Shown one piece after another: positions 26,888 to 51,597 of a stretch of 64,000 bases of DNA (positions are counted from its first letter, which is position 1; every line of letters begins with the position of its first letter). A program made the position numbers and the translations under genes. The DNA lies in contig NW_026933724.1 in NCBI RefSeq assembly GCF_032062105.1, positions 372,001-436,000 of the forward strand, read 5' to 3'. Under the pieces are notes generated by a model. The model did not search any database and was not told where the DNA came from. It saw only the letters and a list, made by a program, of their open reading frames with translations. This DNA is from Saccostrea cucullata (taxonomy: Eukaryota).

Positions 26888-28462
26888 ATGAATAAGACTT
26901 CGGGTAAGGAAACCTCCACAGTGAATATCACATACAAACCATCAGCAAAAGAACCTGCTGTTCCCAATAACACAAACAAAACAGCTGGAAAAGAATTCAC
27001 AGGGGTATCAACTAAGCGGCCTAATCAGAAACAACGAAATCGCCAAAAAGTTACGAAAATAATTTCTCCAAAGAAAGTGTACGCAGAATGCTCCACACAA
27101 ACCGAGGAGGAATGCTCAACAGACGTTAATCAGCTGACAAAAGCGGCTCACATTATCTACTCCTTCTGTCATACAAATGCAGGTGAACTTTTGCCCATTG
27201 AAAAAGTCTTAGATGAGTCCTCAAAGATTCTGCAGGCCCTCGCTCAACTTAGCAAGTCTTTTGACTTCTCGGACATCCCAGAATCCATTCCTTTCACCAA
27301 GAAGTTGCGAGAAGAGGTAAAATCTATTGAAAAGTGTCACAACCGCTGCAGGGAGCTTGTTTCTTCAGAAGAACTACAGTCCTTCTTGCCAAAAACAAAA
27401 CTCAAAGGCCTTGGTACACTTGTCCACTGTAAGATGCTATTAGAAGAGTTTAAGCTCAGAGAAAGAAAGTTTAGACAAGCTGTGATAAGTATTATAGAAT
27501 CTGAAAATCTGGGACTCAAAAGAGCTGAAAACATCTTGTCAAAGATGGACCACAAAGAGCAAATTCACGACTTGGTGGATAGTGTTGCAGAAAACCAGAG
27601 AATTTCCAGCAACAAAGATAAGGATGAACTGCATGACCAATACCGAGAGATAAGCATCAAGCAGAAAAACCAAATCCAGAAACTGGAGATGAAGTTAGAA
27701 AAATACGAGGAAGACAAAGAAAAGATAAGGGATGAGTGCAGAAGACAGGTGATAGAAATAGAAAAAGGTCTTATATTGTGTAATCAACAATGGGAGCGAA
27801 AACTGCAGGAACAATCAAACAAACTGGAACTGTATGATTCAGAAAAAACAAAGTTACTAAGATTACTAGAAGAAGAAAAGCAGAAGATAGCCCACAGAGA
27901 TATTGAAACCAGAAAGCTTAACAAACTGTATCACGAAACAAAAGACAAATTAAAAGAAACGGAAAAATTAAACTACAACATGTCAAAGGCCAGGCGAAAG
28001 TCCCATAAAAATTTAGTTGATAAAGCATGCAGCGCTAACCTGAAAGCAGAATATACTAGTACCCACTGCCAAACAGAAAATTCCATTTCAGTGCCCAAAT
28101 CAAACACTTCTGGTTTTAGTTCTAACACAGCTTTGTCTTCAGCTGATCAACAGAAAATGAGCTCTCACAATAAACATCAAAATCACTTCCACGGCCCAAT
28201 AAATAATGTCCATCTCTATCAAATCTTTCCTGAGAGAAGTTCTAATTCCTCAATACCTCACAAAGAATCTGTACAAAGTGGAAAGAGCAGGTCTAGCTCT
28301 CGCCTGCATATCTCTACAGGAACACGGAGGCAATCGTTGACCAATCAAAATCAAGAACAAAGCGTGACTTTTGAACACCATGAAGAGACTGAATTTGTTT
28401 ATCGCTCAGAATCAACCATGTCTTTTGCAAATTCTGATTCTCTACACGGAGACGATTATTAA
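26888..28462 (+). CDS. Array gene 6: coiled-coil protein with TQT motif and single SFANS (524 aa)
   Basis: Long ORF with coiled coil and terminal STMSFANSD. Candidate 5'UTR intron 26675-26885 (gtaagt...tcaag) ends 2 nt before ATG. Confidence 0.85.
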   Translation: MNKTSGKETSTVNITYKPSAKEPAVPNNTNKTAGKEFTGVSTKRPNQKQRNRQKVTKIISPKKVYAECSTQTEEECSTDVNQLTKAAHIIYSFCHTNAGELLPIEKVLDESSKILQALAQLSKSFDFSDIPESIPFTKKLREEVKSIEKCHNRCRELVSSEELQSFLPKTKLKGLGTLVHCKMLLEEFKLRERKFRQAVISIIESENLGLKRAENILSKMDHKEQIHDLVDSVAENQRISSNKDKDELHDQYREISIKQKNQIQKLEMKLEKYEEDKEKIRDECRRQVIEIEKGLILCNQQWERKLQEQSNKLELYDSEKTKLLRLLEEEKQKIAHRDIETRKLNKLYHETKDKLKETEKLNYNMSKARRKSHKNLVDKACSANLKAEYTSTHCQTENSISVPKSNTSGFSSNTALSSADQQKMSSHNKHQNHFHGPINNVHLYQIFPERSSNSSIPHKESVQSGKSRSSSRLHISTGTRRQSLTNQNQEQSVTFEHHEETEFVYRSESTMSFANSDSLHGDDY

Positions 28463-29188: not shown

Positions 29189-30814
29189 ATGGCTTACTGT
29201 GAGAGAAGGGCCCTAGAGAATTGTCGGACCACCCTGGTGGAAAGACTCCACCCTACAACCCAGTTCCTGGGGTGGTTTGTACAGCATGGGGTCATGAAGG
29301 GGAGAGACTTCAACAAAATTACGGTTTGTAACTGTAGCGAAAATATAACTGCCCATATTTTTTAAACAAATTTATTCACATTTTAAACATCCTATAAATT
29401 GTTTATTTTGGGATAAAAAAAATCCAAGGCATTAAAATGACTTTATCTCTCAGGAAATATATTATGGATAACAATTCTTAATTTTAGTCAAGCTACTCAA
29501 CATGTAATTTTTGTTCAGGATATAAGCACAATGTCACAGAGGACAGAAAACTTCCTCTTTCAAGTGATAGCCAGAAAACCTGGAGCTCTGAAATTCCTCA
29601 TCCACAAACTGAAGGCTGACAAACGCACAGCAGACCTCGCCAAGAAACTGAAAGATGAGGTGGAACAAGTGGAATTTATCCGCAGACAGAAGGTGGAACA
29701 AAGAAAACACAGGAAGATCCTCAAGCTCCAACAAGAACTCAGCAACCTCTACTTGTTTGCTTTTGGTGAATACTTTGTAAATGATAATTCCATAGACTTT
29801 CACTTACAAAAATTTAAGGTAGTCCGATCCTCAGGTTTATAAAATTAGCTGTTAAGTGATTAGAAATACTCATAAAAGTATCTCTGAATCCACAAAGTTA
29901 TGTAAATTTATCCACAGTATTTCTTTAAAGTTAAAGGTTTAAGTTAATCATATCATATAGGAAAAATTGTCAAAATTCCAATATTTTTGCAGAAAAAGAG
30001 AATTGGAATATCAGCAATGCATTTTCTAATTGCAAATTGATCAACAAATATATTTTAGGTTAAAAAACGATAGGTATCCAGGCATTCAGAGATACTGTCA
30101 TGATTTTTACACTTATTTGGTATTTTTTTTCTTTTATTTCCATCGTGTATTCTATATTCATAGTATAAAAGGCTTTTGGTATCATTGCAAGACACCACAA
30201 ATCACTTCTAATTTCATATCATGCTATTAAGCATTGGTATCTAAGGCTGGATTCAAGAAAATCTTATTTCTCTTAAACTGTATTAATTTTATTCCCTTTT
30301 GTAGGGTACAAATGTCAACTTTTATAAGACCTTTTCTGAGAGTTCCAAAAACGTTGAATCTTATATAGATAAATAGAATGAAAATTGTTGCATGAAAAAA
30401 AATCATTTTCAAGCTTCATTTTGATGTATTTCAAATTAAATATTAATTTTTGGAGTTATCTTTCCTGACTGAGGATCGGATATCCTTAAAGTAGCCATAA
30501 GCACAATCATTTCAGCATATCAGGAACTACAGCACACCTTTGGCCATGCTAAATCATTTCCAGAGATGGTCAAAATCATCCTGGCTAAAAATGCCGAGTT
30601 CGTTATGTGGATGAGGGAATTAGAAGCAGTACAGACAGCTATGGTAGATTTGAAATCAGACTATAAGAGAAGAACTTGTGTCATCAGGGAACAGTTAAAA
30701 AAGTATGAACAGAAGAACAAAGACCTGGAGGTTGAGAACGAGACACTCAGGCAAAATGTTGTAAGGACAAGGCAAAGTGTGTATAGAAAATCTGGTCCAC
30801 AAAAAATTGCTTAA
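29189..30814 (+). pseudogene. Array gene 7: CARD-like + coiled-coil gene interrupted by a transposon (exon1 29189-29323; exon2 29519-29817 + 30490-30814; ~252 aa when repaired)
   Basis: 135-nt first exon with a phase-0 GT-AG intron, as in the three paralogs. Removing 29818-30489 restores ...HLQKFKVAISTIISAYQELQ... in frame with ORF 30566-30814. Confidence 0.75.
29818..30485. mobile_element. TTAA-flanked non-autonomous DNA transposon (Kolobok-like) inside a coding exon
   Basis: TTAA(29814-17)-ggtagtccgatcctcag ... ctgaggatcggatatcc-TTAA(30486-89). Confidence 0.85.
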
Positions 30815-38135: not shown

Positions 38136-39268
38136 ATGGATACCAGTGAGCTGTATGCTTTGGAGACTTGTCGGAAAGACATCAGTAATAATCTTCTGGT
38201 GACCGATGCTGTTCTACGTCGACTGGAAAGTACGGACATGATATCCCACCGGGATAGAATGTGTTTCATGGTAATCAGTCTCATAAAACAATTCAATTAA
38301 ATAACTACACTTAAGGACAACTCTAAAGCAATCTTGCTCCAAAACAAAATTTACCTGCTTTTGTGCAACAATGATTTATTTTACAATAATGAATTCTGGT
38401 TTTTTTTTTGTTTCAGAGAATAAGACAGAGTTCAAAGAGAAACACCCAATTAGCAGAGATAATGCGCAAGAAAGAAAAAGGTTTCAGTGCATTTACGGAA
38501 GCTTTAATGCTTGAGAGGAACATAAACCAATACTGTGTGGATAAAATGCAAAAAATGGTGAAGCACCATAAGCAGCAGCACAGGCTCAGAGAACTAAAAG
38601 AAACAGATCTTGTCACAGATGGAAAACCATTCAGGGACACGAAAAAATGTCCCAAGCCCTCAGTGGTGTTTGAGAGCTTCTACAATTCAGTGGCTCCACT
38701 GGTTCATGGTGATAATAAAGAAAACTGTATGGAAAATACAGAGAAGCAAAGCTGTGATGGCAGTGACATTGTGAAGGCCCTCAAACACTGCAGAATGGCA
38801 CTGGATCCCAAAGAGGAAAATTCAGATGTTTCATTAAAAGACCTGCAAAGCAAATACCTTCAGAAGAAACTGCAGACCATTGCCGATGATCTTCGATCAG
38901 AAAGAAGCATGTGGAAGAAAAGGATGGAAAGTCTCCTAGTAGAAAATGATGAATTAACAACAAAAGTGGAAGAACTTGAAAGTGAGCTACAGCAGGAACG
39001 GGATGAAAAAGACAAAATAATTCGTGAAACAGTGGACAGAATTGTCAAAGAGAGGCTGCTTCGACTAAATCACGTAGATACTAAAACTTCCTCTAAACCC
39101 AGTGTGACCATCAACATTCACAACCATGGACATTTTCAAATGGGTGGTACTAATGCCATGGACCTGGACTCTGATTCAACATCAGAATCGGACCAATCAG
39201 AGAAGCCGGACTATGAGAATCAGAATACACCGGACTTCCCTGGTCTGGCAGACAGCGTTCTGTATTAA
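38136..39268 (+). CDS. Array gene 8: CARD-like + coiled coil + RHIM-like tail (exons 38136-38270, 38417-39268; 328 aa)
   Basis: Spliced N-terminus MDTSELYALETCRKDISNNLLVTDAVLRRLESTDMIS..|RIRQSSKRNTQLAEIMRKKEKGFSAFTEAL fits the six-helix CARD pattern. GT-AG intron keeps the frame. Confidence 0.82.
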
Positions 39269-41104: not shown

Positions 41105-42247
41105 ATGGACCCAGCAGAACGTCAGGCTCTACATAATGTTAAGGAGGAACTCCAGAATTGTGCCGTTATCACAGACAAGATGCTGGTTCACTTCTTACAG
41201 AACCAGAAAATCACAAAGGCTGAAAAATATGAACTCTCAGTAAGTAGATCTCACTTTTCCTTTAAAAGAATCTATATAAAGTTACTTTTTTTTTATACCT
41301 TAATTCATTAACTTTATCATAACTTTGAACAAGAAATTAATTCTTTCACTTGATTTTTACAGAGGCTTGGTGCCAACTGTCAGAGAGTAAAGAGAATACT
41401 GCAGATCATGAAGAACCGAAAGGAGTCTCTGAAAACTCTAACAGAAGCACTTCTTCTTGATGTGAAAAATGACTACATTGTTCAGAAACTTCGGAAGAAA
41501 GTTCGATTCTGTCGAAAACGCCTCCAAGCTCAGGAAAACCAGACATCCTCATACTTTGGGCAGCTAGATGATGTGGCAGATATTCTTTACACACGTGGAT
41601 ATTTGACAATATATGGAGAATCTAAAAAAGTCACTGCAGGGACAAGCCATCAAGCTCTGGTGGAGGACATTAACAAATTCGTTGGAGATATCACCAAATG
41701 TCGCCAGAGTTTGGAGCCTTCAAGTGAGAGACAGAGTTTTCAAGAAATCATCGCCGAATACAAAGAAAAGAAACACCAGGAAATTGAAAACGCAAAACTT
41801 GTGTGTGCCAAACTTGTGAAAAGCAAAAACAGTGACCTAGAAGATAAACAGAAGCATATCAAAGACTTACAAGATGAACTTACGAAACTGAAAGTAGAGA
41901 ATGAATCCATGCGGAAGAAAATGGGAATAGAAATCAAAACTAAGGTACAGGAGAATGTGGACCGGCTTCTAATGCTTCCTCGTCTGTCTCCCGCTGATCC
42001 CGTACCTTACGTCGAAACAGAGGAGGATATTCTGGACAGGAAGTTACGGCAGCGTTCCTCGGTAAAACGCCCCGAGCCTCAGGAACATGCTCTTTCCGAC
42101 TCGGAGTCTGACTGCGAGTCTGACAGTGATCTTCCTGTGTCAAATAAAATGACCACCTCCACGACCCAAAAAGGATCAAAAATCGTCCATAACTACAATA
42201 TCTATAACAACCATATGTACAGTGACACAAAAATTTATCAAAATTAG
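41105..42247 (+). CDS. Array gene 9: CARD-like + coiled coil + N/Y-rich tail (exons 41105-41239, 41363-42247; 339 aa)
   Basis: MDPAERQALHNVKEELQNCAVITDKMLVHFLQNQKITKAEKYELS|RLGANCQRVKRILQIMKNRKESLKTLTEALL. Donor gtaagt and acceptor tttacag are in frame. Clear paralog of gene 10. Confidence 0.88.
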
Positions 42248-43558
42248 ATAAAACTTTGTAGTGAATCGTAGATAGAAAATTGTTATGTTTTGTTAATGTT
42301 ATTAGAATGTTTAACAATTTGTTAAATTTGTTACAAATAAATTTATTAAAGTTTGTGGTTTTCTTCTTCAAATGACCTCCATACTTATATGCCTGCCAAA
42401 ATTCCTTCCCAGAATTGGTCTACCATCTTGAATTGGTGCCAAAGTCAATACTGACCACCTTTACTTACAATGCCAGAGTTAAGGGGACAAAGAATGGAAA
42501 AAAAGACCCCATTGACAGAAGGGATTTAGCATGGCTTAAAACTGGATAAAGCCATTAAGCTTAAACAGAATACACTACTTTTTGAGGAATAGATCAATAG
42601 ATTTTGGGGGAAAATATTCAATAAAGATAAAATAGGACCAATTCCATTTTAAAGTTGCAAGAAAAAGCTTGCAGAGAGTGACTCATTTCCTTCTTTTTTA
42701 GAGAGGGGAAACATAAATCTGAACCAAATTAATGTTCATTTTAATCTTCCCTTTACTGGTACTTTCAACTGACTTAACTGCATATGATATTACTGATACT
42801 AACCACAACTGTGTCAAATGTAATGGTCATTCAATTCTTTTTTAGTAGCAACTACATGTCACCTGTCAATACGTGCATATTGAACTCACTGTTTATAAGT
42901 ATATAAATCTGGGTACCCCAATAAAACCCTCCTTGGTTTACATAATACTGTTAGCTAAAAAAGATTATCAAGTTATACATGAGATTATTACACTCTTATT
43001 GGGCAATTCAAATAAAACACCAAAGGAATTCTAAGTACAATATGCATATCTATGGAATAAAAGCTTTATTTAAAGTGTAACAGGGCATTTAAATCCATAG
43101 CGATGACTCATAAACAGGTATCAATAGTACTTACAAAGTGTTTAAACAGAGACAAAAGCAGTTATCGTGAGTTCCAAATCATTGATTTTAATGCCTGAAC
43201 TGAATATAAAAAAAATATCCACTGAAATAATTTCTAACCACAAGAACATTAAATCAATTGCAGATTTCCTGATTTATGCCTTGTTTATTTTTTATTCATT
43301 TTGTAGACATATGTTTAGTCCTAAGAAAATTATTATAGTACACAATACCTGAGCGGTACTAATTAAACTATACGTCATGCAGAATTAACTTAAAAGGACA
43401 TCGTTACTACCGGGTAAATGAAATGTTATCTTGATCATGCCATTTCTTGATAAACAAGCCTGATCTAAGTTATTTGATGTCTCCGTTGATCACAAATATT
43501 TATGCACAGGCATGGACTGTGAACTATTACTATACACGTTCATGTTCATTTCAGTAAA

Positions 43559-44371
43559 AACAAGATGTGTTTGTGAAACATGATGCCCCCGTATGGCAAC
43601 ATAGCAAAGATCAAACTTTTCTTAAATGCAAGTTTAATATATTGGTACCAAAAGTAGGGTATTTTCACTGGAAATACAATTGTGAAATATGAAAGTAGAC
43701 TGAGGATAAAAATTTTATGGAAATCTTCAAGGTCAAGATCATTGGGATCCAATGAAAGGTCTTGCCACAAAAAATACATATGTAAAGTATGGAAGCCCTA
43801 GCCCTAACCGTTAAGAAGTTATGGACAAGGTTAAAAATTTTTAAAAGTAGGTCAACTCCAAGGTCAAGGGTCTTGCTATCAAATGAAAGGTCTTGTCAAA
43901 AGAATTAAATATGTAAAGTGTGAAAGCACTAGCCCTAGCCCTTTAAAAGTAATCATCAAATTTCATGGTCTAGGTCAAAGGGTCAAAGTTCTTGATATCC
44001 AATGAAGGGTCTTCTTACAAGGATTACATATGTGAAGTATGAAAGCCCTATCCCTTACCGTTAAAAAGTTATGGCCAAGGTTAAAGTTTTTTTTATAAGT
44101 ACAAAAATCTCCAAGGACAAGGTCAAAAGGTCAAGGTAATTGGTGTCCGATGAAAGGTCTTGCCACATAGAATACATATGTAAAGTATGGATGCCCTAGC
44201 CCTAACCGCTCAGAAGTTATGGTCAATGTTACAAAATTTTAAAAGTAGGTCAAGGTCAATGGGTCAAAGGTCTTGCTATGAAATAAAAGGTCTTGTCACA
44301 AGGACTAAATATGTAAAGTATAAAAGCACTATCTCTAACTCTTTAAAAGTAATGGTCAAGGTTTGCTTTTT

Positions 44372-44402
<31 letters not shown>

Positions 44403-44908
44403 AAGTTCTTGCTATCCAATGAAGGGTCTTTTCACAAGGATTACATACGTGAAGTATGAATGCCCTATCCCTTACCGTTCAAAAGTTATGGCCAAGGTTA
44501 AAATTTTTTCACAAGTAAGGAATTCTCCAAGGTCAAAGTCAAAAGGTCAAGATTGTTGGTATCCAATGAAAAGTCTTTCAACAAAGAATATATATGTGAA
44601 GAAAAAATGTCCTGGTATCTACTGTTCAAAAGATTTGGCCAAAGTAAAAGTTTGGAATTTTTGTGTAAAAGTGGGTCAAACTCCAAGGTCAAGGTCAAAA
44701 GGTCAAATTTGGTGCTACCCAAAGAAAGGTCTTGTCACAAGGAATACATAGATAAAATATGAAAGTCATAGCTCCACTAAATCAAAAGTTATGGGCAAGG
44801 TTAAAGTTTTTGTGAACAAACAGACAGAGAGACAGACAGCTAGACAGACAGATGGACACAACAAAAACTATATACCCCGAAACTTCATTTACGGGGGCAT
44901 AAAAAAAT
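43559..44908 (+). mobile_element. HINE/Helentron-type element with ggtcaagg satellite
   Basis: aacaagatgtgtttgtgaaaca start, tandem units, (GACA)n microsatellite and terminal ccccg..cgggg hairpin. Confidence 0.75.
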
Positions 44909-47900
44909 GTGAAAACATGTATACATGTGTAATCAAAACTTCGAGAGATAGAGGGTAAAAAATCAATGAAAAGTGTGTACATTTAATGGGACCCAGATCT
45001 AAGTTCGAGAGAGATCTCAAGTTCTTGAGTTTAGGAGTAAATTAGTTATATAGAGGAAAAAACTGGACCAAAGTTCACTTCAAGAGATTGAGAACTTTGA
45101 GAGGTCAGAGTTCGACCCATGGAGAGTCACCTGTATTGTCATAGCAATTCAATATCCATGCAATCAAGTTTAGCAAACTAGAACAATGCATCTGTAAGGT
45201 TTGATCAGCATAATATAATAGATCTACTCAGAGAAGGGGTAGGTTGATTTTTGTGCTACAGTAACTGCTTTTCAAAAGCAATTTCTATCTTTCATCAAAC
45301 TCTTATTCAATTTTTTGCACTTTTTCCCCAAGGTTAAGGATTTAAACATTGGTAATGCCCACTCTGATAAGATTGCCTCTCAAATAAAATTTACAGGCAA
45401 TATAATCTTCTGAATGAAAGATGTATCACAAAATAAGGATAAAACTGAACACAGAGGGATCCTTAAACAAGTGCCAATAAATTACTAACAGAGTCGGTAT
45501 TTTACCCTCCTCTGGGGAGGGTCAACCCAGACCCCCAACACGAACATGTATAAGTAAGAACTAGGTAAATACTGCCGGCTTCCAATTCAAATATTCAATT
45601 CAAATCAGCCCAGATACCACTCTGAGAAACTCAAATTAGACCTTTCAGATTTTGATTTGTTGGTTATCCAGAGAAATTCTTTTGTAGATATCAGTTAACA
45701 ACTACCTGGGAATTTGGAAACAACCTCATATTATCTTGAATGCAAAAATTGATTTTATTGGAATCACACTGAAAGCATGATTTGCATTTTGAAATAAACC
45801 TTGAATTTCAACACCAATTATTATTTCATGTAATTATCGAATTGCTTTTGCCAAGCCTTTAAAAAGTTAAGCAATAAAAAAAAACTTCTGTTTCTTTTTT
45901 AAATCTGATTCAATACTGCGGTGAATGCACAATTAAGAAATTTTACACAGCACCATTCGGTTGAATGCTTACATGCAAACTAAGAAGAATATCTGAATTC
46001 CAGGAATATTACATTTGTCAGTGGAAGACCAAAAGACCTTGTGCTTCAAGAATAACTCTGATGTATGATGTAATAAATGTGACAAAAAATGCACACTGCT
46101 AATCCATTTCTTATGATTTTGGTAATTAAAAGTAAAATTTCAAAAATATTTCAGTCTAATTGCAACAGATGAATTTCTGTCAGTTAAATTGTATACATGC
46201 ATGTATATTTATAATCTTTTATACAATTAAGACAATAAGTAAGAAATTGAAGTAAAAAATTGAACTCTGTTTTTCTCTCAACCTTCGATCCTAGATTAAA
46301 ATTAACGGTCAATTTAATTTTTCTATCACATTTTAATCCTTGTGCATAGTGCCCAATTTTTATGGCACAAAATGTAAAAAACAAAAAAAAACAACAACAA
46401 CAAAATTAGAAAATTAGAATGGAAATATTAAGCTCATTAAACATTAAGACAGGAACAGTTAAAATATTTTATTTAAAAAAAACACAAAAAAAACAGGAAA
46501 TAAGAATTGAAATATTTTAAGTCCATTATAAACACATGACAGAAAAGGTTGAAAATCATTAATTTAATAGCAGTAAAATCCAATTGCAGGTATATATGTA
46601 CCTAACATGAAGAATGCCTCTTCTAATGGCTTTACAAATGTATAGTGATTTAAGAGAATTTTTTAAGAAAGACCAGCAATCAGGTAAGAATCTTGCACCC
46701 TATAAAAATCCTATCAATTCTATTAAATCACCAAAAGTAACATATATACATTTAATTTACTACGATTCCTTGTGTGTGTGACGTCAATTGGATTAAAATA
46801 CAAGTGTACAGCGAGGGGTGACTTACCACTAAGGTGAAGGAGCTACAGTTAGAAGGATTTATATCAGTACTGTAACTAAACTAACTACCCAAAGGCAGCT
46901 GTGGTCTGGGAATAACCTAAATTAATGGTAAGTTATATTTTTCTTGCTTCTTAAAAATTAATTGATGTGATTTTTTTTCAAACATTGTCATTTATAAAAT
47001 ATAGACTAATAAAATGGATAAGATTTATAAAATTCATTTGAATACAATCTATACTTCACAAAATATTTTAAATCTTTATAAATATGAAGTTATTAAACAG
47101 AAGCCAAGCTTAAAAGTACACTGAAACTAAACAAATTGAGAGCAAACACAGAACTCTAAAATATGAAAGGTGGGATCAGGTGTCATGAAGGAGTAAACAT
47201 CCCCTGTCATCCCATCACACTTGCTGTGTGTTCCCTCTCAAGATTGGTCAATTAGTTGATTCTGAGGTCATTTTGGTAGATGCTAATTTACAGTCTTCAG
47301 AGATAGTACATAAATATCATTATTGTAAAATCAAGAAATAGCAACTGCATTTTCATATAAACAGATGATTTTTTTCGTTAACTTAAAAAAAAATTAAATA
47401 CTTGATAACATGTTATCATCTTTTATTTAATGTTTTAGCAATTAATATCAAATATTACAAATAAAAGCAAATCAAAAAAAATGAAAATCCTTATCAAGCA
47501 ATGACAGTCAAATATTTTTTTATGTCTAATAAAAAAGGGTATGTAAAGAATATACAATCGGCCCAAATGTTGAAGACATTTTGGGCCTTTTTTTAAGTTA
47601 ACAAAAACATTTTCCCATACAGTTCTTATCCGATTTTTTTTCTATTTACTGCAAAGAAATCAATAACAGATGTGGGGCCCTATACCTCAATTATTTTTTT
47701 TTAATAACAAGTGGTTTTAACTGATCAATTAACATACTTAAAATTGAGAAATTTAGAATGTGGGACTAGTGCATGACTTGTTCAAATTTAATGCATTTTT
47801 ATTTTTAGGTTGTTTGATAACCCCTTCATTTTAACAGGAATTATAAACCAAATTGTCAGATCTACTTCATTCACTTTTGAGGTGAAAAAAAGGGAAATGA

Positions 47901-48434
47901 TCTTTGATTAATGGTCTTCAAAAGTTTTGGAGAATTTACTAGATTTGCCTCTATTGGGCTGTAATTTTTTAAGAGTGTAATAAAAAGAGTATACTTGTAA
48001 AATAAAGATTTTTTTCTTAAAATTGTATGGTAAAAAAAAATGTATAGAAAAACATCCTTAATTCAAAAATAGGTAGAAATCAAAGAGAACCTGTCATGAA
48101 TAAGACACTGGTCCTCTTTATCACAGAGTAGGGAAAGGGAATATATGCAATCAGAAAATAAATAGGGGGTTTTGGGGTCTACTTCTCAAGATCTCAATCC
48201 TGCAGTTCAAGGAAAAACAAGTAGACCAATACAGGTGGTGGGCTACTGTCTTTTTAAATTCAAACACATGGATGACTCACCGTTTGGCACCAGGTTATCG
48301 TCTTTTGTTTCAAGACTGATACTAGTAATCTTTAGTTACATAGGATCATTATAGGTTTAGTCTAACTTTGAACAATTCCATGAGAAAGTCTCAGACCTCT
48401 GATTTTTCTTTGAAGCAGAGGGAATATTCAGAAG

Positions 48435-49602
48435 ATGGACTCTGCAGAGAAACAGGCATTACATAACTTGAGACATGACTTACAGAGCCACATGGTGATC
48501 ACAGATCGCATTCTCAGGCACTTACTACAACACAATAAAATCAACAAAACCGAGAAACATGACTTGTCAGTAAGTATTAGAAATCCTTACTTCTTTGGCA
48601 TAAATTAGTCTTCTACTAATAAGATTTTTAAAAAATATTTTCTACTAGTGGTTTTTGTAATTTTTGAACTTTTATATGTCAGTTTTGCAATTGATGTCTA
48701 ATTATTATTTTTTCCAGATTCATGGAGCTTCTTCACAAAAGATTAAGAAGCTGATACAGATCTTACAACACCGAGAGCAGCCCCTACAGGTGATGACAGA
48801 TGCCCTCTTGTTGGAGACAAGAAACATTTTTATTGTTAAAAAACTAAATAAGAAAGTGAGATATTATCGTTCAAGGCAAGAGCAGGAAGAAAACAAAATA
48901 AATAACAGCAATTGTAATCAGCTTCAACCAATCAGTGAAATTCTGTTTAAAAGGGGATATGCTGTTGTTTATGGTACATGTCATAAGCTGGCATATCCCA
49001 AAGGACATCAAAAACTAGTGGAGGGAATGAATGTCTTCATGAAAACAATAGAGGACTGTAGGGATACCTTCAATGGGTGTGAAACCAGACATTTCCAAGA
49101 CATTGTTAAAGATTACTGTAACAAAAAGGAAAAAGAAATCAAGGATGCCAAAGCCCTTTGTGCCAAATTAGTCAAGACTAAAAACTGTGAACTTGATCAG
49201 AAAGCTGGGGAAATGAGTTCCCTTAAAGAAGAAGTGGAAAAGCTCAGAAGGGAAAACGAAAAAATACGCAAAAATATGGATCAAGAAGTTCGTGAAAAAG
49301 TTCGAGAGGGTGTCCGACAGAGTTTACTGTCCATGCCTATGCTGAGTTCGTGTCTGGGTTTAAGGACAACTAGTATGGGCAGGGCACGAGAACACTCCGA
49401 GTCTTCTGGGTTTTCTGGGAATAGTGACACAGGGTCCACATCTTCCTCTGACCCCCGGGAGGACAGCGAGGATGAGGAGGGATTTAATACGGAGACTACG
49501 GACACTTACAGTGAGGCTGGCCAATCAGCAACGAGGATCACCCACAATTACAACATCTACAACAACTACATGTATAGTGAAGCTAGGCTTTATCAGTCCT
49601 AA
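48435..49602 (+). CDS. Array gene 10: CARD-like + coiled coil + N/Y-rich tail (exons 48435-48569, 48718-49602; 339 aa)
   Basis: MDSAEKQALHNLRHDLQSHMVITDRILRHLLQHNKINKTEKHDLS|IHGASSQKIKKLIQILQHREQPLQVMTDALL. Same exon length and phase as genes 7-9, and colinear with gene 9. Confidence 0.88.
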
Positions 49603-51597
49603 CCAATCAAACAAGCCAATACAACAACTACATGTATAGTGAAGCTAGGCTTTATCAGAGCTAACCAATCAAATCCTACAACATTAACCAATGTAAAAAT
49701 GTAAATACCTTGTTGTTACTTTATTTATAATTTTATATTTTACAAAAGATTATTAAATTATATATAATAATCAAAATTTACACATTTTTATTTAAAATTT
49801 TTATCATATGTTAATTTTTATAATTGCAAAATGTGCCAAGTAACATAGAGCCTTTACTTAATTAAATATTTTAATTATAAATAAGAGGAGCCTACTATGT
49901 ATTATAAAAGTTTATATTATTTTCCATTCATAGTTTAAGTGTGTGATGTGTGAATATAATTGGAATGACTTGTATTTATGCCAGATTATTAAGCTGAGAG
50001 TAACTTTAGAATTTTGTATATATTTCACTTTATAAAAGACCTGCAAGGTTTACATTGTTACACACAAAAGAAGTTTTTATATTTACATTGAAATTTATTT
50101 AAATGCCTTCCTCCAAAAGAAAACTGTTCTTTTAAAGTATTGTACGTCTTCCAGAGCTCTGTTATCACTGCCCTTCATAAGTTTTTGATCTTTAGCCAAA
50201 ATCACTATTCCCATGCTGCCTTGAACATTGTGAAATAATTCAAAACTTCCTATACCCTCATGCTTGCTCTTTGTTATAACATGTTAGTAACAGTTTAACA
50301 GAAAGCTGAATTTAGTTCCAATTCATCTGGCATGTTCCACCCAGGGATCATCCTCTAGTTCCCAGTTCTGTGTTATCATTCTAGACAATCACATTATAAA
50401 TTTATTTACATTTTTTGTTAAGTTTTGTAAATATTTATTGTTATAACTTGTTATGTGAAAACATCATGTGAATCTGATGTTGGATTTTTGAACTTTTAGG
50501 ATCAGCATATTACTGATCTCTTAATCCAGTAGTGTCCTTTGTTTTGTAGTTATCTGGACATTAGCTATGGTTAAGGAGTTAGTTATGCATTTGTTAAAGG
50601 TTAACTTCTATAAGTACCTGCCCTGTTATGTTTGTTTCTGAAATAAATTCAATATAAAAATTGATGAGATTTTGTTTTTCTTTCATGAATGAACTTAAAG
50701 GATTAAAAGATTTTATGGTGCAATTTTCCACCATTCATGAGCCTTTAGAAAAAAGAATTTAGTCCTTTCACTCACTGAAGTGTTAAGAACCTTATGAAAA
50801 TCTGGGTGGAAAGTCTTGAGTAATTCTAGTAACAGAACCACTTCAAAAGCTATGTAGTTAAATACTGTGAAAAATCATAATCTTTTAGCACCAATATCCT
50901 TTTTATAAGAAACAAGTAACTTAAGATGAAGTGCCAGTAATGTTATTAAATAAGAAATTATATCCTCTCTTTAAAACTGGAATGATTTTCAAATTATGCA
51001 TTCTTAGAGACTTTTGCACTTAAAATAATAGGAGATAATGCAGTAGTTACAACAGATATTCTGTTACTCTATGTCACCTATTATTATTGTGAATGTAATG
51101 CACTTTTAGGTAGCAGTTGAAATATACACAGTGTGCTGCCTACCCAGAGTAACAGCAGAGATATCCTGTTACTCAGTTAGACCCCTACTCTTGGAGTAGG
51201 AATTCTAATATTACAGGTATTTTATAAACAAGTTAGACATGTATTGTAACTAGCAGTAGAAATATCCTGCTACCCAGTAAGCCATCAGTAGAGAGATATT
51301 CTGTTACTCTCCTTCTTTAAGTAACAGTCAAGATATTCTGCTACTCTCCTTCTTTAAGTAACAGTAGAGATATTCCGTTACTACCCTAAGTATCAGTAGA
51401 GATATACTGTTACTACTCAAGTAGCAGCAGTAATATTCTGTTATAAGTACAATAGAGATATTCTATTACTACTTTTAGTAATACTAGAGATATTCTGATA
51501 CTACTTTAAGTAACACTAGAGATATTCTCTACTTGAAGTATCAGAAGACATGTTCTATTACTACTCTTGGTAATAATAGAGATATTCTCTTACTTTT

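Follow-up and report, generated by a model that had tools for sequence, protein, structure and literature searches.

To our knowledge, amyloid signaling in animals is known almost only via the RHIM and the cRHIM, and fungi and bacteria use several motif types that are insulated from each other. Here, we investigate the last 22 residues of two tandem genes (genes 9 and 10) within a window of 64,000 nucleotides (nt) from the oyster Saccostrea cucullata (assembly GCF_032062105.1, contig NW_026933724.1, positions 372,001 to 436,000 of the forward strand; plain coordinates below count from the first letter of this window). Both genes encode a CARD at the N-terminus with a long coiled coil behind it, i.e., the CARD-CC layout, and both end with a similar short motif. 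Judged from its sequence, this tail is probably a derived, RHIM-like stacking motif.

The RHIM of RIPK1, RIPK3, TRIF and ZBP1 (Pfam family PF12721) covers about 20 residues of a disordered region and has three possible strands. The same is predicted for the ends of genes 9 and 10, whose putative first strand [YI]-x-[IV]-x-N is like Y531/I533 of RIPK1 and V450/I452 of RIPK3; furthermore, their sister gene 8 carries a motif with full RHIM spacing. In contrast to the RHIM, the tails have no core tetrad, no Gly, no Pfam match and a loop that is one residue shorter, and they terminate the protein with [YF]-Q-[NS]. For the cRHIM (VxxG) of Drosophila Imd and PGRP-LC/LE and of shrimp SRB2, amyloid signaling is described for which cell death is not needed (PMC13506858). 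It is also a degenerate RHIM-type motif of invertebrates, whereas genes 9 and 10 have no VxxG and place their motif on a CARD-coiled-coil protein, and no receptor with the same motif was found in our searches. Fungal and bacterial motifs (HET-s/HRAM, PP, BASS) occur with several types per genome, some of which do not cross-seed (PMC7885112). Like the oyster tails, they are C-terminal motifs behind a helical domain, but they pair unlike receptors and effectors, while the carriers studied here are paralogs that share a single architecture, and our searches reveal no NLR bearing their motif.

With regard to the rest of the protein, the closest system is CARD9/CARMA with BCL10, which has the same order of an N-terminal CARD and a long coiled coil. 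Genes 9 and 10 differ in encoding only 339 amino acids (aa) with a single coil of about 80 aa, and CARD9 is not a sequence match. Molluscs possess Bcl10 and a MALT1-like paracaspase (PMC5978004), and bivalve proteins with CARD and RHIM are on record along with an iridovirus homolog, BiIV1_006R (PMC12452177). These proteins, and a CgRHIM-containing protein reportedly published by Liu et al. in 2024, are possible rather than established relatives of the family of genes 9 and 10.

Conservation of the terminal motif

The two peptides are found exactly where the first-pass annotation of the window had placed them, i.e., at 42179..42247 (gene 9) and 49534..49602 (gene 10), both on the forward strand and each comprising 22 aa and the stop codon. 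They share 14/22 identical residues, which is never attained when the gene 10 motif is shuffled 100,000 times. When linker and tail are shuffled together (200 times), the best 22-residue window shows 10 identities.

To quantify conservation, four gene-9 orthologs were compared with four gene-10 orthologs. The mean identity between the two paralog groups is 0.52 for the CARD, 0.31 for the middle part, 0.49 for the coiled coil, 0.12 for the linker and 0.52 for the motif. That is, the motif is conserved equally to the CARD, not better, and, as had been claimed, far better than the acidic linker in front of it. Among shared codons, the degenerate third positions are the same in 7/13 cases within the motif, 22/40 within the CARD and 14/33 within the coiled coil. 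Since the synonymous sites of the motif are thus as diverged as elsewhere while its identity exceeds that of the linker by far (0.52 vs 0.12), selection rather than conversion explains the likeness, and the sequence comparison supports an old motif that is probably under purifying selection.

The tail is present in orthologs of Saccostrea, Ostrea, Magallana and Crassostrea. Its 20 distinct versions follow the pattern [YI]-[NT]-[IV]-[YFI]-[NT]-N-[HYN]-[MIL]-[YS]-S-x(3,4)-[VLI]-[YF]-Q-[NS]-stop, in which three residues never vary, namely one N, the S and the Q before the last residue. No Tyr position is without replacement (I, F, S, H or N) in at least one version, e.g., the first three of them are I, I and S in gene 9 of Crassostrea virginica and the last is F in the Magallana-type gene 9. 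The positions [YI], [IV], [MIL], [VLI] and [YF] remain hydrophobic, and N and T replace each other. The first-pass annotation had described the motif as N/Y-rich and as a strand of alternating aromatic residues and Asn; across these versions it is not obligately Y-rich, and the alternation is not supported as its essential feature. What appears to be conserved instead is a beta-forming pattern, not tyrosine. Exchanges among beta-forming residues favor a beta-structured element and disfavor phosphotyrosine docking, and the substitution pattern fits an amyloid and a partner-bound strand alike. Within eight representative proteins, the last 22 residues contain neither Pro nor Gly and only 5-14% charged residues (vs 25-37% in the linker), which sit in the variable loop.

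Structure and expression of the carrier genes

Genes 9 and 10 are neighbors about 6 kb apart, each with two exons on the forward strand, a product of 339 aa and the motif closing exon 2. In gene 9, exon 1 (41105..41239) contributes 45 aa, i.e., one half of the CARD, and exon 2 (41363..42247) encodes the CARD remainder (to about 41512), a helical middle part, the coiled coil (about 41738-41974), the acidic Ser-rich linker (41975-42178) and the motif. The latter can be divided into a predicted strand 1 ([YI]-x-[IV]), an N-rich loop, M-Y-S, a variable loop of 3-4 aa and the end [IVL]-[YF]-Q-[NS]-stop. Gene 10 has the same layout, i.e., the first CARD half in exon 1 (48435..48569), in agreement with the start of the orthologs P0018 and P0020, and the CARD remainder, middle part, coiled coil, acidic linker and motif in exon 2 (48718..49602).

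The spliced product of gene 9 is identical to the S. cucullata protein P0022. Its splice joint (41239 to 41363, GT..AG) is seen in 3/3 raw RNA runs and in one contig set; in oligo-dT reads both exons are covered and the intron is empty, and the terminal motif lies under RNA reads as well. These reads stem from a related animal and are mostly 90-99% alike; among the differences listed, at least three fall into the motif, two of them silent and one changing I to V. Upstream of 41089 the reads differ from the window letters, which suggests an untranslated upstream exon of gene 9. In the same runs, gene 10 shows low RNA depth (one contig starts at 48718) and gene 8 almost none, which may be due to sequence divergence of the source animal. 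In the 3' flank of gene 10, a tandem copy of 54 nt (49620..49673, forward strand, 96%) repeats the end of its motif with the stop codon; this duplication (region 49558-49673) is recent and lies behind the stop.

The assignment of the N-terminal domain as CARD is confirmed by profile and structure comparisons. For the ortholog profile of both groups, the CARD of BCL10 is the best solved relative (E 5e-5). In P0020, the Pfam CARD family matches with E 2e-4 but below the cut-off. An AlphaFold2 model from 13 alignment rows shows a six-helix domain for residues 1-100, with a predicted local distance difference test score (pLDDT) of 89-94, and a long helix for residues 171-249, again with high pLDDT. 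Residues 277-339 have pLDDT values below 50 and are without predicted structure; the tail itself is at about 33 in this run as well as in an earlier one with 9 rows, whose model was too poor for a fold match. All top rows of the structural alignment are CARDs, the best being 5wvc_D (Z 13.6, rmsd 1.9, 98 aligned residues). Therein, apoptosome-type CARDs (Z 13.6 to 11.5) are closer matches than CARD9 (Z 9.8) or BCL10 (Z 9.7). Foldseek returned CARDs for the second model, none of them at E 0.001, and CARD9 is absent from the sequence matches of the profile at E 1. According to the model, the motif would lie in disorder outside of the globular domains, as is characteristic of RHIMs. The named homologs from searches yielding 12, 4 and 10 proteins are all from oysters (Saccostrea, Ostrea, Magallana, Crassostrea), as are the members of the inspected protein clusters; since the searches were word-limited, this does not show absence from other molluscs.

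RHIM-type segments in the sister paralogs

Gene 8 is a sister paralog on the forward strand with the first CARD half in exon 1 (38136..38270) and the second CARD half, a coiled coil, a RHIM-spaced motif and an acidic tail in exon 2 (38417..39268). Its motif (39107..39160), I-N-I-H-N-H-G-H-F-Q-M-G-G-x-N-A-M, shows the full RHIM spacing (I, I+2, F+8, Q+9, M+10, G+11, N+14, M+16), which is kept in its orthologs. This is in agreement with the RHIM positions Y531, I533, I539, Q540, I541, G542 and M547 of RIPK1 (10.64898/2026.02.19.706818). F and M are outside of the strict letters of the RHIM tetrad, Pfam reports no RHIM match for the motif, and a comparison with PDB sequences yields a single match by chance. 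The motif's likeness to the Pfam-positive RHIM of the genome is reached in 0/500 shuffles. This RHIM exon is found at L033:1333-1629 (reverse strand) and L034:1429-1725 (forward strand) with 25.3 bits. On both loci it is followed by a frame that, read by eye, resembles a death domain, such that RHIM and frame together are a candidate Imd/RIP-like partner for gene 8.

With regard to position, the likeness to gene 8 noted in the first-pass annotation holds only loosely. Both motifs are C-terminal, but their order relative to the acidic tract is reversed: in gene 8 the motif directly follows the coiled coil and about 40 residues including the acidic tract are behind it, while in genes 9 and 10 the acidic tract comes first and the motif forms the very end of the protein.

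Three additional paralogs are located outside of the window. Two are just upstream on the same contig, namely parA (L025:3610-5167, including L025:4301-5164), for which the first exon was found, and parB (L025:8961-9818, including L025:8961-9815), for which it was not found in L025. The third, parC, is unlinked and present on other contigs in two copies (L032:1483-2157 and L039:1501-2169) that are 85% identical and thus either alleles or duplicates. parB contains the segment L-Q-I-N-T-V-E-N-L-Q-L-S, parA ends with I-L-I-Q-N-P-R-N-V-N-I-F-S and parC with Y-N-I-K-A-E-N-V-N-I-N-N; the segments of parA and gene 8 are retained in other oysters. The likeness of the parB segment to the Pfam-positive RHIM has a p-value of 0.010. 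In parC, Y-N-I, a loop of four residues and V-N-I follow each other with the same spacing as Y-N-I and M-Y-S of genes 9 and 10.

Taken together, the genome searches revealed six paralogs with CARD and coiled coil, and in 6/6 the coil is followed by a segment that is beta-prone and N/Q-rich. Their composition score is 8-11, compared to 4-8 in seven neighboring coiled-coil frames without CARD; this score is our own and was devised post hoc, i.e., after the motifs had been seen. The segments are graded from full RHIM spacing (gene 8) via degenerate forms (parA, parB, parC) to genes 9 and 10, which show the first strand only. In a tree of the family, genes 9 and 10 are sisters (98/98), while other joins are weak and branches long. 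As every sister paralog has a RHIM or a RHIM-like segment in this region, we favor "derived" over "new", the two options the first-pass annotation had left side by side. Position and family make it reasonable to assume that the tail descends from a RHIM-type ancestor, although this is not a statistical result. A cluster that grades from full RHIM spacing to a tail without tetrad would serve to ask how a signaling amyloid drifts and turns orthogonal, and its unannotated candidates would join oyster immune signaling.

Proposed assembly of the tails

An amyloid role of the tail is plausible from these sequence features. We see an even chance that the 22 residues at the end of both proteins are a derived RHIM-like sequence that stacks into cross-beta polymers once clustered. 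In this process, coiled coil and CARD would raise the local concentration and bring the tails together. The tail, unfolded in the monomer, would then form an in-register serpentine of three strands, in which Y323/I325 would pack on M330/S332, i.e., a large aromatic residue against the small invariant Ser, and Y331 on I336/Q338. Asn and Gln would form ladders, and charges would be confined to the variable loop. Given their common pattern, the products of both genes may co-assemble. The polymer would cluster the CARDs and could thereby recruit a downstream CARD partner, e.g., of caspase or BCL10 type.

The predicted disorder of the tail counts for this reading, with CARD and coil being confidently predicted in the second AlphaFold2 run. 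RHIM and HET-s motifs are likewise bordered by unstructured regions (PMC4262963). The shorter, Gly-free loop would be no bar to stacking, since loop deletions and many Gly substitutions raise amyloid nucleation in RIPK3 (10.64898/2026.02.19.706818). With M-Y-S replacing the RHIM core, there would be little interaction between the tail and the RHIM of gene 8; cross-seeding with the latter is unlikely because the core tetrad is absent. Beyond that, it is possible, though we doubt it, that oysters have expanded a tandem family of CARD-coiled-coil adaptors and that each paralog has its own RHIM-derived amyloid address, such that the tail would co-polymerize gene 9 with gene 10 without RHIM cross-seeding. 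If true, it would be a new, Gly-free amyloid signaling motif of animals and part of parallel insulated signalosomes, comparable to fungi, in which HET-s, HELLF and HELLP act in independent pathways.

Counterevidence and alternative explanations

A number of results weigh against a RHIM-derived stacking motif. The RHIM core tetrad, defined as (V/I)-Q-(V/I/L/C)-G, is missing in 20/20 distinct tails. Of the aliphatic set i, i+2, i+8, i+10 only the first two are present, followed by a hydrophobic residue at i+7 and Ser at i+9. The Ser, invariant at the fourth aliphatic position, was admitted to our register pattern only after being seen, and mutation of this position strongly lowers nucleation of RIPK1/3 (10.64898/2026.02.19.706818). 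PF12721 does not match the motif at E 10, nor is the motif among the five genome matches to this family; since it misses the gene 8 motif too, the family is insensitive here. The only Pfam result for the motifs is DUF5580_C (E 0.07), which we disregard. PDB sequences yield 0 matches to the motif profile at E 10, and the ESM Atlas provides no usable feature match for the whole protein or the tail, low-confidence structure rows of the tail (TM at most 0.5) being disregarded. The cRHIM core VxxG is absent, with no Gly among the last 22 residues of the eight representative proteins. Given the failure of tetrad, spacing and Pfam tests, the tail, as read from its residues, is by definition neither RHIM nor cRHIM.

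Similarity statistics mostly do not connect the tail to its sisters either. Compared to parA, parB and parC its likeness is at chance level (p-values 0.35, 0.85 and 0.45, respectively), as it is for the RHIM of the genome (0.55), and the values for gene 8 (0.006) and gene 6 (0.05) are nominal among 21 comparisons. Furthermore, an alternative register that places the tail on the first half of the parA segment is equally good by eye. Within the ortholog groups, the motif is less conserved than the CARD (0.68 and 0.59 vs 0.89 and 0.87). Low pLDDT values are equally expected of any short linear motif, and the likeness of both tails needs common descent only.

RHIM and fungal motifs were recognized as modules because they are shared by unlike proteins (PMC4262963; PMC7885112). 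We find no such unrelated carrier in the searched representatives, where a profile of 22 residues has low power, or by protein and pattern searches of the genome. Among 1.84 billion representatives, the motif profile has four matches at E 0.001, two of which are the orthologs and two repeat proteins with, by reading, leucine-rich repeats. The tail as protein query finds only genes 9 and 10 themselves in the genome. A first genome pattern yields 18 matches (control 5), i.e., genes 9 and 10, 15 matches in frames of at most 60 aa, and one internal to a 449-aa frame of other context. A terminal pattern yields 46 (control 34), of which 3 are our own, 30 were fetched and 13 not examined; none of those fetched has more than 40 open codons upstream, and a short last exon could escape such a search. 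No relative is found in viral contigs, and neither family nor motif is described in the literature searched, with subscription journals and supplements outside its coverage. Unlike carriers are how a shuffled homotypic module usually shows itself in genomes, and the lack of this signature is the main reason why we do not put stacking above one half.

Among other explanations, the tail may serve for linear docking, in which case a globular partner would be bound via the free C-terminus of the tail or by addition of a beta-strand, and no polymer would form. The strictly kept end, with Q at position -2 from the stop in 20/20 tails and no extension, is in accordance with docking, as are the disorder of the tail in the monomer model and its confinement to one paralog pair, and a partner could be contacted via the invariant residues N, S and Q. 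On the other hand, 22 residues with three separate hydrophobic strands exceed the usual length of a docking motif, PDZ ligands end hydrophobic whereas the last residue is N or S here, and RHIM-type segments occupy the same region of the sister paralogs. We regard docking as unlikely, though with a substantial chance of being correct; in this case, the gain would be modest, namely the annotation of a CARD family that is specific to oysters. Considerably less probable is a tail that folds back on its own CARD or coiled coil in an autoinhibitory manner as in CARD9/CARD11. CARD-coiled-coil proteins are autoinhibited via an intramolecular interface (PMC6624267), and a motif as conserved as CARD and coil is what a co-evolving surface would show. 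Neither AlphaFold2 model, however, shows a confident tail structure, which is weak counterevidence for alignments of 9 and 13 rows, and the CARD9 interface is formed by CARD and coil without a terminal peptide.

A decaying RHIM remnant under weak constraint and with no present function would explain the lost core tetrad and why the identity within ortholog groups (0.59-0.68) is near that of the linker (0.56-0.58). We consider it very improbable, since identity between the paralog groups is fourfold higher in the motif than in the linker although the synonymous sites of the motif have diverged, residues are exchanged conservatively, and three residues as well as the distance to the stop are fixed. 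Hardly any more room is left for a tyrosine-phosphorylation platform recruiting SH2-type partners. The window copies have 4-5 Tyr per 22 residues including Y-N-N and Y-Q-N words, and Y-x-N-type words are an SH2 consensus; the variable Tyr positions and their replacements in the C. virginica and Magallana-type gene 9 largely refute this explanation. Recent gene conversion, for which the tandem arrangement would speak and which had been named as refuting the proposed motif, has next to no probability: 6/13 degenerate third positions of the motif differ, apart from A/T-rich noise, neither the introns nor the 3' flanks can be aligned, and the tail of each paralog groups with its own orthologs.

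Neighboring genes

Gene 7 (29189-29323, 29519-29842, 30473-30814) combines a CARD-like start of two exons (weak, E 0.027) with a coiled-coil exon. Its first exon has the same 45 codons in length, no terminal motif is seen in it, and in S. echinata it is annotated as fused to gene 8 (P0058). Genes 1-6 (5545-28462) are six long coiled-coil open reading frames without detectable CARD. They are barely alignable outside of a Ser-rich word, S-x-[IVLM]-S-[FC]-A-N-S, which is found near their ends, sometimes twice (about 6793, 13550, 17008 and 17086, 18803, 20150, 28421), and is possibly a phosphorylation or docking motif. The CARD-less gene 6 (524 aa) also contains a beta-prone, N/H-rich segment, H-Q-N-H-F-H-G-P-I-N-N-V-H-L-Y-Q (28175-28222), whose end resembles the gene 10 tail of C. 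virginica. A frame on the reverse strand (L027:8802-9188), located some 20 kb beyond the downstream end of the window, resembles what we take to be a peptidoglycan-recognition protein domain.

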